From Moraxella nasicaprae (GTDB taxonomy: Bacteria; Pseudomonadota; Gammaproteobacteria; Pseudomonadales; Moraxellaceae): a DNA stretch of 32,000 nt. The translations under genes and the position numbers were made by a program. This document shows, one piece after another, positions 4,695-32,000 of the stretch. How positions within the stretch are numbered: the stretch's first letter is position 1; each line of letters begins with the position of its first letter. The stretch spans positions 660,001-692,000 of the forward strand of contig NZ_CP089977.1 in assembly GCF_025643275.1 (NCBI RefSeq). The letters run 5' to 3'. The notes below the pieces were generated by a model, which was not told the DNA's origin, made no database searches, and saw only the letters and a program-made list of their open reading frames with translations.

Positions 4695-6386
4695 TTACTT
4701 TTCTAGATTTCGCAGCTCTTTACGCAAAATCTTCCCAACATTAGACTTGGGTAGTTCATCGATAAAGGCGATGTGCTTGGGTCGTTTATAGCCAGTCAAA
4801 TGTTGTTTTGCCCAATTTTGTACTTCTTTTTCATCAAGGCTGGCATCTTTTTTAACCACATACACCTTGACCACTTCGCCACTATGATTATCAGGCACAC
4901 CAATCACGCCACATTCTAATACTTTTGGATGAGCGGCGATGGCTTCTTCGACTTCATTTGGATAAACATTAAAGCCTGACACCAAAATCATGTCTTTTTT
5001 TCTATCGACAATTTTCACAAATCCATCAGCGTCCATCACGCCAATATCGCCTGTGCGAAAATAGCCATCTTGGGTCATCACTTTGGCGGTCTCATCATCT
5101 CGCTTATAGTAGCCTTTCATGACTTGCGGCCCTTTGGCACAAATCTCGCCAGCCTCGCCAAGAGCAACCTCATTACCATCATCGTCCAAAATCACGACAT
5201 CGGTATTTGGTAGCGGAATGCCAATTTTGCCTGTAAAGCCCATCGGTGGTGGATTGACCGTCAAAACAGGGGAAGTTTCGGACAAGCCGTATCCTTCGGT
5301 GATTGACCGACTCGTCATCGCCTCCCAAGCCTTAGCGGTGCTTGGTAATACCGACATACCCCCACCCAATGCCAATCGCAAATTACTATGGTCTAGTCCC
5401 TTAAAGCCCTTATGATTGGTCAATGCATTAAACAAGGTATTGACAGCAGGGAAGAATGCTGGACGATATTTGGCAAATTGTTTGGTTAAGTCATCAAAAT
5501 CTCGTGCATTGATGATAAGCAGCAGACTAAATCCCAGCTTCATCGCCAGCAAGCTAACCATAAAACAAAAGATGTGATACAACGGCAATGCCACCGCCAT
5601 ATATTGCCCTTTGATATTGCCATCAGGAAATGCCGTTTTGACAAAATTGGTTGCCTGTTCGACATTGCTAATCAAGTTGCGATGAGACAACATTGCCCCT
5701 TTTGCCACGCCTGTCGTACCGCCTGTGTACTGCAACACCGCCACATCATCTAGGTCAAGCTGTGGACGCACATAATGACTGACTGGCACTTTGGATAACG
5801 CCTCTTTAAAGCTGATGGCTCCTGCAATGTGATAGCTTGGTACCATTTTTTTGATGTGTCGCACCACAAAATTGACCGCTAAACCTTTCAATCCCATCAT
5901 ATCGCCCACACTGGCGACAATGACATGCTTGACTTGACCCTTATTTTTGACCTGCTCAAAAGTCTTGGCAAAATTTTCGATGATGAACAACACCTTAGCA
6001 TCTGCATCATTAAGCTGATGTTCTAGCTCATGAGCCGTATAAAGTGGATTGACATTCACTAATGTATAGCCAGCACGGATAATGCCAAACATACAAATGG
6101 GATATTGCATCACATTAGGCATCATGACCGCCACTTTATCGCCTTGTTGCAGTCCAAGCGATTGTAAATAAGCAGCAATCTTACGACTGGCAACATCAAG
6201 CTCACCATAAGTCATTGACACACCCATCGAGGTCATGGCAATGCTATCTTTATGCTCACTGATACAGCCATCAAACACATCAAGCAATGAGCCAACATCA
6301 TCATTCCATGCCATCTGTGGGTCAATGCCATATTTTTCGTAAGTTTGATACCAAGGGCGTTCAGAAAAAATAGTCTGCACGGTCAT
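4695..6386 (-). CDS. fadD: long-chain-fatty-acid--CoA ligase (copy 1)
   Basis: 563-aa ORF with the AMP-binding motif YTGGTTGVAKGA, plus GYGLSETSP, TGDIG and the C-terminal PKSNVGKILRKELR. Confidence 0.9.
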   Translation of the reverse strand: MTVQTIFSERPWYQTYEKYGIDPQMAWNDDVGSLLDVFDGCISEHKDSIAMTSMGVSMTYGELDVASRKIAAYLQSLGLQQGDKVAVMMPNVMQYPICMFGIIRAGYTLVNVNPLYTAHELEHQLNDADAKVLFIIENFAKTFEQVKNKGQVKHVIVASVGDMMGLKGLAVNFVVRHIKKMVPSYHIAGAISFKEALSKVPVSHYVRPQLDLDDVAVLQYTGGTTGVAKGAMLSHRNLISNVEQATNFVKTAFPDGNIKGQYMAVALPLYHIFCFMVSLLAMKLGFSLLLIINARDFDDLTKQFAKYRPAFFPAVNTLFNALTNHKGFKGLDHSNLRLALGGGMSVLPSTAKAWEAMTSRSITEGYGLSETSPVLTVNPPPMGFTGKIGIPLPNTDVVILDDDGNEVALGEAGEICAKGPQVMKGYYKRDDETAKVMTQDGYFRTGDIGVMDADGFVKIVDRKKDMILVSGFNVYPNEVEEAIAAHPKVLECGVIGVPDNHSGEVVKVYVVKKDASLDEKEVQNWAKQHLTGYKRPKHIAFIDELPKSNVGKILRKELRNLEK

Positions 6387-29515: not shown

Positions 29516-29873
29516 TAAAATTTTATCGCAAACATCAAATCCATCGCACCAAAAAAAGTAGTCAAAGCACCATTGGCGATGTCGTTAAGATGCACGCCAT
29601 GATTTGCCATGGTTAATGTAAAAAATCCAACGCAAGCCATCACGCCATGATGAGACTGACGAATGATTTTTGTGGTGTACTAAGATGAATTTGACATCAC
29701 TTTTAGCCGACACAAGCCATCATATTGTCATGGCTTGCTTGTTTTGATGGTGTAATGGTATCCAAACGGTCATTATGACACCCCATCAATCCATCGCAAT
29801 GACATCAAGCATAGATTTAACATAATCCAGCAAAATGATACCAAAAAACACCGATGTCATCTTAGCTGCAATC

Positions 29874-29906
29874 AAAAACCCCAAATCGACTGACTTGGGG
29901 TTTTTG
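29874..29906 (-). terminator. intrinsic terminator after the autotransporter gene
   Basis: aaaaACCCCAAatcgactgaCTTGGGGTtttt. On the minus strand the hairpin is followed by tttttgattg. Confidence 0.7.
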
Positions 29907-29928
29907 ATTGATTGGCTTGTGAATTTAA

Positions 29929-32000
29929 TTAGAATTCATAGCCTAAACCAACGCCTGCACCGATGGTTTTTTGGGTATTGGCATCGACATTCATCTTAAT
30001 CGTGATTCTGCCATTGTCGCTACGGCTTGAAAAGCCCACAGCAACCGCAGCTTGGTCTCGATAAGAACCTAAGCCAAATGCCAGCATTGATTTGCCAACC
30101 GTGCTTACCTGTGGCAAGGCGGCAGTAGCACGAGAACCTGCCAAACCTGCTTCTAGGTTTTGCTCCACACCATCAATGTGCTGACGCAAATTGTTGATGT
30201 ATTGGTTGGTTGCAAATAACTGCGACCCATTGACAGCATCGGTTGAATTGGCAGAAATCACACCTGGTGCAACATTGCTCACCACATTATGACCCATATT
30301 GACCGTACCTTGTGCATTGACCGTTAGGCTATTTGTCGTGATTGCATTGGCTGTTACCGTGTCGGCTGTCAGCGTGTCTGCAACTTTAACATTGTTAAAC
30401 GATACATCATCGGTCGTGGTGATGCTTAATTTACCAGCATTTTGGGTGATGGCGATGTTATCACCTGCATTGATGGTAACCGTATTACCTGGATTAACCA
30501 GCTCTTTGCTTGAACCTGATACCTTGCCTGTGCCAGATGCACTGGTGGTTAGGGTAAATCCTGAGTTGTTAATCGCTTTGGCAACATCATCAGCAGTCAC
30601 CAATGCAGCAGTCGCCACCGCCAAGTCTTGTTGGGCGTTAGTCACAGCGGTTTGGGCTGCTTGACGCTCCGCTGGTGTGGCGGTTGTTGGCAATTTCGCC
30701 AATGCAGTTTGGGCATTGGTTAATGCAGTTTGGGCATTAGTCACAGGACTGATGGCAGAACCTGCTTTTTCTTGACCTGCTGGAACACCCTCAATGCTGG
30801 CTGTATGTGCGTCAATCTTGACGGTGCTATTTTTACCATCGCCATTTGTAACGGTAGCGATTGTGCCTTTGCCATCAATAAAGTTGATGTTGTCGCCAGC
30901 TTGTACCACATCTTTGGTTTCGCCATTGTTTTGCAGATTCCAATCGCCAGCTGCTTGACCTACCTCGCCATCTTTACCATCTCTACCATCTTTGACTACG
31001 GTAGTGGTGGTGCCATTGACATCGGTAACGGTGATGGTATGGGTGCCATCTTGATTGTTGGTTACTGTGGCGATGGCATTTTGACCGTCTTTACCGTCTT
31101 TACCATCAGCACCTTTTTCACCTTGGTCACCTTTGTCACCTTTTAGGCCTTGGATACCTTGTTCGCCTTGGTCACCTTTGTCACCTTTAGCACCGTCTTT
31201 ACCGTTCTTGATGTCAAAGGTTTTTTCGCCAGTAGCATCAGTGATGGTGACGGTTGAGCCTGTGTCGTTGGTGTCAACGGTTACAGTTGGGCTAAAGCCG
31301 TCAGCACCTTTTTCACCTTGGATACCTTGTTCGCCTTGGATACCTTGTTCACCTTTTAGGCCTTGGATACCTTGTTCACCTTGGTCACCTTTGTCACCTT
31401 TTAGGCCTTGGATACCTTGTTCGCCTTGGTCACCTTTGTCACCTTTAGCACCGTCTTTACCGTTCTTGATGTCAAAGGTTTTTTCGCCAGTAGCATCAGT
31501 GATGGTGACGGTTGAGCCTGTGTCGTTGGTGTCAACGGTTACAGTTGGGCTAAAGCCGTCAGCACCTTTTTCACCTTGGATACCTTGTTCGCCTTGGTCA
31601 CCTTTGTCACCTTTTAGGCCTTGGATACCTTGTTCACCTTGGTCACCTTTGTCACCTTTTAGGCCTTGGATACCTTGTTCGCCTTGGTCACCTTTGTCAC
31701 CTTTAGCACCGTCTTTACCGTTCTTGATGTCAAAGGTTTTTTCGCCAGTAGCATCAGTGATGGTGACGGTTGAGCCTGTGTCGTTGGTGTCAACGGTTAC
31801 AGTTGGGCTAAAGCCGTCAGCACCTTTTTCACCTTGGATACCTTGTTCGCCTTGGTCACCTTTGTCACCTTTTAGGCCTTGGATACCTTGTTCGCCTTGG
31901 TCACCTTTGTCACCTTTAGCACCGTCTTTACCGTTCTTGATGTCAAAGGTTTTTTCGCCAGTAGCATCAGTGATGGTGACGGTTGAGCCTGTGTCGTTGG
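29929..32000 (-). CDS. trimeric autotransporter adhesin, C-terminal part (the gene continues beyond the window)
   Basis: The YadA-type anchor reads AVNGSQLFATNQYINNL...ALPQV...AFGLGSYRDQAAVAVGFS...GAGVGLGYEF-stop. A Trp-ring/GIN-like segment GDWNLQNNGETKDVVQAGDNINFIDGKG lies upstream. My hand translation shows the frame stays open from 30909 to 32000. The ORF-track start at 30909 is an internal GTG codon, so it reflects only the absence of any ATG, GTG or TTG codon further upstream in that frame. Confidence 0.9.
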   Translation of the reverse strand, partial: NDTGSTVTITDATGEKTFDIKNGKDGAKGDKGDQGEQGIQGLKGDKGDQGEQGIQGEKGADGFSPTVTVDTNDTGSTVTITDATGEKTFDIKNGKDGAKGDKGDQGEQGIQGLKGDKGDQGEQGIQGLKGDKGDQGEQGIQGEKGADGFSPTVTVDTNDTGSTVTITDATGEKTFDIKNGKDGAKGDKGDQGEQGIQGLKGDKGDQGEQGIQGLKGEQGIQGEQGIQGEKGADGFSPTVTVDTNDTGSTVTITDATGEKTFDIKNGKDGAKGDKGDQGEQGIQGLKGDKGDQGEKGADGKDGKDGQNAIATVTNNQDGTHTITVTDVNGTTTTVVKDGRDGKDGEVGQAAGDWNLQNNGETKDVVQAGDNINFIDGKGTIATVTNGDGKNSTVKIDAHTASIEGVPAGQEKAGSAISPVTNAQTALTNAQTALAKLPTTATPAERQAAQTAVTNAQQDLAVATAALVTADDVAKAINNSGFTLTTSASGTGKVSGSSKELVNPGNTVTINAGDNIAITQNAGKLSITTTDDVSFNNVKVADTLTADTVTANAITTNSLTVNAQGTVNMGHNVVSNVAPGVISANSTDAVNGSQLFATNQYINNLRQHIDGVEQNLEAGLAGSRATAALPQVSTVGKSMLAFGLGSYRDQAAVAVGFSSRSDNGRITIKMNVDANTQKTIGAGVGLGYEF
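30701..30742 (-). repeat. 21-nt tandem duplication within the adhesin stalk (encodes TNAQTAL twice)
   Basis: aatgcagtttgggcattggtt followed by aatgcagtttgggcattagtc, with 2 mismatches. Confidence 0.8.
31084..32000 (-). repeat. nested tandem repeats encoding collagen-like G-X-Y tracts alternating with a beta module
   Basis: The same >140-nt block (agcaccgtctttaccgttcttgatgtcaaagg...) recurs at 31189, 31447, 31705 and 31918, giving spacings of 258, 258 and 213 nt. The length difference equals one 45-nt sub-repeat (GLKGDKGDQGEQGIQ). The array runs off the window. Confidence 0.92.

Follow-up and report, generated by a model that had tools for sequence, protein, structure and literature searches.

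What kind of stalk does a trimeric autotransporter adhesin carry when glycine recurs at every third residue in the segment next to its membrane anchor? The question is raised by one end of a 32,000-nucleotide stretch of the Moraxella nasicaprae genome (contig NZ_CP089977.1, positions 660,001 to 692,000; hereafter the window), in which collagen-like Gly-X-Y blocks were predicted from the DNA letters to share the frame of a YadA-type anchor. Our analysis indicates that this DNA encodes a Moraxella trimeric autotransporter adhesin of great size (>2300 residues), of which it covers the C-terminal third. We propose that its array of collagen-like tracts probably forms a membrane-proximal triple-helical spacer, which is registered by the trimeric anchor and varies in length through DNA repeats of 258 and 45 nucleotides (nt).

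The tracts and the anchor share one open frame

Translation of the minus strand from 31998 to 29929 yielded 690 codons, the sole stop of which, at 29929~29931, is the end of the frame. The translated C-terminus (...GAGVGLGYEF) is a typical ending of a YadA anchor. The collagen blocks indeed lie in the anchor frame, and the stretch between 30910 and 32000 is free of stops, as the original prediction had stated on both counts. By contrast, the other minus-strand frame translated, which starts from 32000, contains stops throughout the repeat. The repeat region had been placed from 31084 onwards; the array is present there, but its lower edge lies at about 30952, slightly outside that coordinate. 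Because the true open reading frame (ORF) continues past the window edge at 32000, with the N-terminus beyond it, the ORF listing shows only an internal ORF of 326 residues that starts with GTG. The gene is delimited as follows.

29929..32000, minus strand: 3' part of the trimeric autotransporter adhesin gene, 690 codons including the stop (continuous open frame; Pfam Collagen, CFSR, YadA_stalk and YadA_anchor; syntenic orthologue in GCA_030530725.1)

Collagen-like tracts and the underlying DNA repeat

The array contains four Gly-X-Y tracts and, in addition, a run of four triplets. Counted strictly and together with the GKD that closes the preceding module, the four tracts are 13, 18, 18 and 13 triplets long, none of them interrupted. 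The earlier counts of 12 and 17 triplets per block agree with the observed 13 and 18 once this GKD is left out. With the terminal G-F-S and G-Q-N positions included, a script counted 14, 19, 19, 14 and 4, that is, 70 in-phase triplets, all without proline and without a single break in the glycine periodicity. Position X is mainly occupied by Asp, Glu, Ile, Ala, Lys or Leu, and position Y by Gln, Lys or Asp, with 19 K-G-D/E motifs altogether. Inspection of the tracts found no integrin-type motif G-x-x-G-E-R within them. The Pfam family Collagen (PF01391) matched over four stretches with an E-value of 8.7e-35 and 118.7 bits against a cut-off of 27.2, the best stretch being residues 180~234 of the fragment; the Gly-X-Y repeat is therefore far beyond chance. 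A sequence search against the PDB also matched the tracts to collagens. Composition and Pfam match together bear out the view that these proline-free, charged and Gln-rich tracts are of the bacterial collagen type.

31807..31932, minus strand: collagen-like tract 1, 13 strict G-X-Y triplets (triplet count; Pfam Collagen)
31549..31719, minus strand: collagen-like tract 2, 18 triplets (triplet count; Pfam Collagen)
31291..31461, minus strand: collagen-like tract 3, 18 triplets, a variant ending in GLKGEQGIQGEQGIQ (triplet count; best Pfam Collagen stretch)
31078..31203, minus strand: collagen-like tract 4, 13 triplets (triplet count)
30952..30987, minus strand: four-triplet G-X-Y run GRDGKDGEVGQA, which links the array to the remaining stalk (triplet count)
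31111..32000, minus strand: tandem DNA repeat array of 258-nt units with a 213-nt variant and a 45-nt sub-repeat (TRF)

At the DNA level, TRF detected a tandem repeat with a period of 258 nt at 31111~31917 (3.1 copies, 98% matches), and a 213-nt variant unit that extends to 32000. A sub-repeat of 45 nt (90~94% matches) corresponds to exactly five Gly-X-Y triplets.

As a separate observation, an unrelated lipoprotein of family PF13306 from a metagenome (P0015, 902 residues) contains more than 20 copies of GEKGDKGDQGEQGIQ, which is nearly the 15-residue sub-repeat GLKGDKGDQGEQGIQ of the window. Judged by sequence, a proline-free pentad of the GLKGDKGDQGEQGIQ/GEKGDKGDQGEQGIQ type thus appears to recur in very different bacterial surface proteins.

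The tracts alternate with CFSR modules

Between the tracts lies a 35-residue module, FSPTVTVDTNDTGSTVTITDATGEKTFDIKNGKDG (type A), in three full copies and one copy cut by the window end, accompanied by one divergent copy, NAIATVTNNQDGTHTITVTDVNGTTTTVVKDGRDG (type B). The block and module sequences quoted in the original prediction are present in the translation. Pfam assigned the module to PF19079, the "Collagen-flanked surface repeat" (CFSR), with 45.5 bits against a cut-off of 27 over four stretches, and the NCBIfam model TIGR04203 matched over five stretches with 80.8 bits against a cut-off of 60. Every type-A unit has G-X-Y tracts on either side. The type-A and type-B units of the adhesin share only 40% identity with each other.

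31921..31998, minus strand: CFSR type A, cut by the window end, residues 1~26 (translation; identical to the last 26 residues of a full copy)
31708..31812, minus strand: CFSR type A, FSPTVTVDTNDTGSTVTITDATGEKTFDIKNGKDG (PF19079 and TIGR04203)
31450..31554, minus strand: CFSR type A (Pfam, tract count)
31192..31296, minus strand: CFSR type A (Pfam, tract count)
30976..31080, minus strand: CFSR type B, NAIATVTNNQDGTHTITVTDVNGTTTTVVKDGRDG, the subtype that autotransporter adhesins commonly have (best Pfam CFSR stretch, residues 302~348)

Given 34 aligned CFSR units of diverse sequence as input, AlphaFold2 predicted a three-stranded β meander (strands at residues 4~10, 13~20 and 23~30) with a pLDDT of 90.4. 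The N and C ends of the predicted monomer are located at opposite poles, an end-to-end geometry that would suit a node threaded between two helices. A literature search for the collagen-flanked surface repeat, PF19079 or CFSR retrieved only unrelated acronyms.

Connector, coiled-coil stalk, anchor and terminator

C-terminal to the array, and in the same frame, the chain carries its own trimerization domain, composed of the YadA stalk and anchor.

30865..30951, minus strand: connector GDWNLQNNGETKDVVQAGDNINFIDGKG, Trp-ring/GIN-like, a resemblance at motif level only (resembles ...SGWNLQANGKPVDAVTHGNNVNFA... in P0023 and P0088)
30157..30282, minus strand: YadA_stalk coiled-coil segment (PF05662, residues 573~614, E 5e-10, 40 bits against a cut-off of 28.4)
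29932..30114, minus strand: YadA-like membrane anchor, the share of one subunit in the trimeric β-barrel (PF03895, residues 629~689, E 1.6e-15, 57.4 bits against a cut-off of 22.7)
29869..29910, minus strand: likely intrinsic terminator, a strong hairpin followed by a U-run just past the stop codon (RNA fold of -30.4 kcal/mol, z of -9.2 against shuffles)

A search against PDB sequences matched the stalk to fragments of the Hia, SadA and AtaA stalks, with YadA also among the stalk and anchor matches. The anchor matched the Hia anchor structures 3emo, 2gr7 and 2gr8 at E-values from 8e-20 to 1e-10 (3emo, E 8.1e-20). Hence the predicted trimeric autotransporter identity is borne out by YadA_anchor and YadA_stalk, both above the Pfam cut-offs, and by the Hia anchor match; Collagen, the other domain for which a Pfam check had been proposed together with YadA_anchor, also exceeds its cut-off. 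The connector received no Pfam call in the window fragment.

The hairpin at 29869~29910 has a perfect 19-bp stem between an A-run and a U-run, and looks like a bidirectional intrinsic terminator. A consensus terminator scan found no terminator and missed this hairpin, which was revealed by folding.

A syntenic orthologue in a sister genome

A first protein search was dominated by low-complexity matches to collagens, and the Moraxella orthologue was found with the non-repetitive C-terminus as the query. The C-terminal 389 residues are 90% identical to "YadA-like family protein, partial [Moraxella sp.]" (P0121), encoded on a contig of Moraxella sp. GCA_030530725.1 that is fully syntenic with the window. 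At the nucleotide level, the flanking housekeeping genes (window 20060~29617) are 96.7% identical between the two genomes, compared to 92.5% for the 3' end of the adhesin gene (window 29614~30951). In the sister genome, a scaffold gap of 100 N (contig 9901~10000) inside the collagen repeat splits the adhesin into a piece of 1972 residues and a "partial" piece of 363 residues, giving more than 2335 residues in total. The upstream piece of 1972 residues contains an ESPR, YadA_head repeats, stalk segments, a Trp_ring and two CFSR-like modules, and ends in GDKGDQGEQGIQGLKGDK. Downstream, the collagen of the sister strain passes directly into ...AGDWNLQNN, without the type-B CFSR that the window strain has at this junction; module content therefore differs between close strains. 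A scan of genome contigs yielded only a 39%-identical relative, from Pasteurella testudinis.

The comparison also bears on whether the array belongs to a working gene at all, rather than being an assembly artefact, the remnant of a pseudogene or a chance translation. The window stops within the repeat, with the 5' part outside, and the sister assembly is broken at the same point, as such an explanation would have it. Nevertheless, we consider it very improbable: the 690 codons stay open through a 98%-identical repeat and lead into a canonical stalk, an anchor and a terminator hairpin, whereas the other minus-strand frame translated is closed by stops all through the repeat, and the intact upstream piece of the sister genome runs into the same collagen sequence.

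The architecture is already catalogued

The original prediction, which noted that a collagen stalk is not among the standard stalk domain types it knew of, implied novelty. This did not stand, given the existing families PF19079 and TIGR04203 and the published collagen repeats of the VtaA adhesins. The stalk-domain list on which the claim leaned, which lacks collagen, is consistent with the 2008 daTAA paper, where "collagen" occurs in the reference list only; this may explain why the earlier reader was unaware of collagen stalks. The proposed search for proteins that combine collagen and anchor domains was fruitful. In a census of 239 search hits plus the window fragment, 129 proteins bear an anchor, 60 of which also have a Gly-X-Y tract of at least five triplets and 45 a CFSR as well. 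Many database proteins, from Haemophilus, Neisseria, Mannheimia and Glaesserella, combine PF01391, PF19079, PF05662 and PF03895. Some of them are on record (NCBI, UniRef) as a "collagen-flanked surface repeat-containing protein" and others as a "YadA family autotransporter adhesin". A complete example of 1140 residues (P0009) has the order ESPR-stalk-Collagen-CFSR-Collagen-CFSR-stalk-anchor. The window adhesin is thus a new example of a catalogued architecture, from Moraxella, with proline-free tracts and an amplified CFSR subtype that resembles phage-fiber units.

The best-studied comparison is VtaA of Glaesserella parasuis. The window fragment, together with the upstream piece of the sister genome, shares the ESPR-head-stalk-collagen-anchor order of published VtaA. 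All 13 VtaA of strain Nagasaki have two to eight PF01391 domains ahead of the YadA anchor, the collagen repeats being located between passenger and anchor (PMC6211672). Repeat number varies between VtaA orthologues, which have two to four collagen repeats (PMC2820231), and the collagen domains of VtaA have been the subject of deletion and expression experiments. A recombinant collagen fragment of VtaA10 runs at 60 instead of 32 kDa, which its authors attributed to a "strong interaction between monomers" (PMC2820231). However, the two adhesins are not orthologous: the best G. parasuis match (P0236) covers 33% of the C-terminal query at 40% identity, and the nearest relatives outside Moraxella reach 42~43% identity with this query. 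Moreover, the one published VtaA collagen segment compared is proline-rich (AGPTGPQGPAGPTG...), whereas the window tracts are proline-free and based on Asp, Glu, Lys and Gln. A relative from Glaesserella australis (P0119) carries CFSR, as does the window adhesin. Other proteins of PF19079 and TIGR04203 have the same collagen-flanked 35-residue module, the amplified unit of the window being of the "SPTV" subtype.

The collagen region of streptococcal Scl proteins is generally known to bind host factors, and the tracts of the window adhesin might likewise be a ligand-binding or host-mimicking element, with spacing as a secondary effect. They would then bind host collagen through collagen-collagen contacts, or imitate collagenous proteins of the host toward immune receptors or as T-cell epitopes; the original prediction had raised mimicry as well. 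In line with this, deletion of the collagen domains weakened the binding of VtaA2 to collagen and left binding to mucin, fibronectin, bovine serum albumin and plastic unaffected (PMC6755704), and a peptide of the VtaA10 collagen domain cross-stimulated T cells specific for residues 261~273 of human collagen II, for which mimicry was proposed (PMC8415917). The window sequence, however, has neither a motif of the G-x-x-G-E-R type nor a proline-rich surface of low charge, and the array occupies the least exposed place of the molecule, next to the anchor and with some 2000 residues of head and stalk ahead of it. In addition, the one immune pig serum tried on the VtaA10 collagen fragment failed to detect it (PMC2820231). 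We therefore regard ligand binding or mimicry as the unlikely prime function of the tracts, one that is compatible with a spacer role.

The streptococcal Scl1 and Scl2 and the Legionella Lcl protein provide a second comparison. They too possess surface Gly-X-Y tracts that are proline-poor or charge-stabilized, vary in length through tandem repeats and need a neighboring trimerization domain. They differ from the window adhesin, which lacks an LPXTG motif and a V domain, is anchored by a trimeric β-barrel, and has tracts interrupted by CFSR instead of one long helix.

Membership in several named families was tried and rejected. The Scl1/Scl2/Lcl models matched only in part and scored far below their cut-offs (NF038330, 127 against 400 bits; NF038329, 103.5 against 325; NF046116, 124 against 500), and the C-terminus is a YadA anchor. 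The EmaA model NF033477 reached 88.7 bits against a cut-off of 3000, matching generic stalk segments only. The Burkholderia "collagen-like adhesin" was rejected as a precedent, being represented by lipoproteins of PF15984 that are neither autotransporters nor members of PF01391 (PMC10224339).

A probable triple-helical spacer of variable length

We infer that the array would work as follows. The anchor and the coiled-coil stalk would hold the three chains parallel and in register, a condition that short bacterial collagens need, so that the Gly-X-Y tracts could zip into short triple helices stabilized by Lys-Gly-Asp/Glu ion pairs and Gln. In host-guest studies by Persikov et al., K-G-D/E motifs reportedly stabilize the triple helix. 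Each cassette of the array pairs a proline-free tract, 13 or 18 triplets long, with a CFSR of 35 residues after it. The CFSR would fold into an up-down-up meander, three copies of which could pack around the fiber axis as a node that restarts the register of the helix. The whole array would serve as a thin, length-efficient spacer that keeps the YadA-like head off the cell surface.

Collagen rises by 0.286 nm per residue, and the four visible tracts would accordingly span ~53 nm; residue for residue, this is roughly double what a coiled coil covers. Eukaryotic collectins and the class A scavenger receptor combine an α-helical coiled coil and a collagen triple helix in the stalk of one parallel homotrimer, which demonstrates that both elements can be joined in one fiber. 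They are unrelated to the window adhesin in sequence, use hydroxyproline and have another membrane topology.

As for length, recombination or slippage could add or drop whole cassettes, or steps of five triplets, in frame. Such gain and loss is likely because the DNA repeats are nearly identical (98%). The difference in module content between the two Moraxella strains and the literature on VtaA repeat number agree with length variation.

The Gly-X-Y tracts could instead be flexible, hydrated linkers of low complexity that form no triple helix and are kept for their charge and flexibility. The tracts are indeed short and devoid of proline, and some "collagen-like" proteins of Burkholderia have been described as intrinsically disordered (PMC10224339). 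These last, however, are the PF15984 lipoproteins, a family different from PF01391. A linker would have no need of glycine at every third residue, whereas 70 triplets are in phase and the length steps are whole triplets (45 nt for five); the strict periodicity is also kept in distant homologues of other families and in phage fibers; and the obligate parallel trimer provides the nucleation that short bacterial collagens require. The strict glycine periodicity, the five-triplet steps and the abundant K-G-D/E pairs thus favor a genuine triple helix; we consider a floppy linker decidedly unlikely.

Several points weigh against the triple-helical spacer. The adhesin gene of the window strain is known from its 3' part only. 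The tracts are short and lack proline and hydroxyproline, and the literature searched held no circular dichroism, protease resistance or structure showing a triple helix for a collagen tract of any autotransporter. The one-residue stagger of collagen chains has to be reconciled with the threefold-symmetric neighbors of the tracts. The predicted CFSR structure covers a single chain; no solved homologue was found. The best matches of a profile against PDB sequences (filamin, Spb1) had an E-value of 0.024, and a Foldseek search that used the 35-residue model returned 0 matches at E ≤ 0.001. Finally, length variation is inferred from two strains and from literature on another genus.

Two CFSR subtypes and a possible link to phage fibers

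The two CFSR subtypes of the window adhesin have different closest relatives. The type-B ("DGTHT") unit is closest to units of Pasteurellaceae adhesins, with 74% identity to that of G. australis P0119. By contrast, the amplified type-A ("SPTV") unit is 62~65% identical to units of anchor-less proteins, compared to 51% for any adhesin unit. In the hit sets, the "SPTV" subtype occurs almost entirely in anchor-less proteins, a group that includes some phage tail fibers and Gram-positive surface proteins. This anchor-less family includes P0095, encoded by a tail-fiber gene in a Gram-positive siphophage module, where it lies directly ahead of a GH25/CW_7/LysM endolysin gene. The junction G[AK]DGFSPT was found in 76 proteins of the hit set, and a YadA anchor in the window protein only (1 of the 76). 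A scan of viral contigs with one cassette retrieved 492 relatives, the best of which are 53~55% identical across the whole cassette.

Collagen-like phage tail fibers share the same collagen-CFSR-collagen cassette with the window adhesin, including the G-A-D-G-F-S-P-T junction. However, their tracts contain proline, the domains at both termini are those of phage proteins, and a YadA anchor is absent. On these resemblances, the cassette might be a portable, self-registering block of trimeric fibers that is exchanged among phage fibers, Gram-positive wall proteins and autotransporter stalks. The amplified cassette of Moraxella would then be a graft of phage-fiber type, and the CFSR meander a trimeric node that nucleates proline-free helices. 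We offer this as a tentative possibility, on balance doubtful. Because the units are short and the hit sets were selected with the window sequence itself, the origin of the cassette is a lead rather than a result.

Neighboring genes

The remainder of the window is ordinary chromosome with a GC content of ~44~48%, including groEL, xerC, dapF, lysA, ackA, pta, a BrkB/YihY gene and a WrbA-like gene. Look-ups with the exact sequences of three of these (yihY/BrkB, wrbA-like and groEL) gave no recorded match. About 450 bp (window 29473~29928) lie between the BrkB/YihY gene and the stop of the adhesin; at this place a gene of 88 residues is called in the sister genome, and its product gave no Pfam hit. 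Two paralogous genes of the AMP-binding acyl-CoA-ligase type, each encoding 563 residues and 72% identical, are located on the minus strand at 4695~6386 and 9975~11666. Between them, on the plus strand (6712~9940), lie the genes of a TonB-dependent receptor and of a putative esterase.

Implications

Collagen-like tracts are a known stalk feature of trimeric autotransporters, present in VtaA, in Pasteurellaceae, in Neisseria and now in Moraxella, and the record is corrected to that effect. The near-identical repeats break short-read assemblies, and many of the relatives in the databases are "partial"; such adhesins are thus systematically truncated. The cassette, whose tracts are short, proline-free and independent of hydroxylation and would be registered by the anchor, makes a clean structural target and is of interest for the design of recombinant collagens. 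In-frame gain and loss of repeats would be an easy means of adjusting the reach of the adhesive head beyond the cell, which bears on strain variation and on adhesin-based vaccine antigens.

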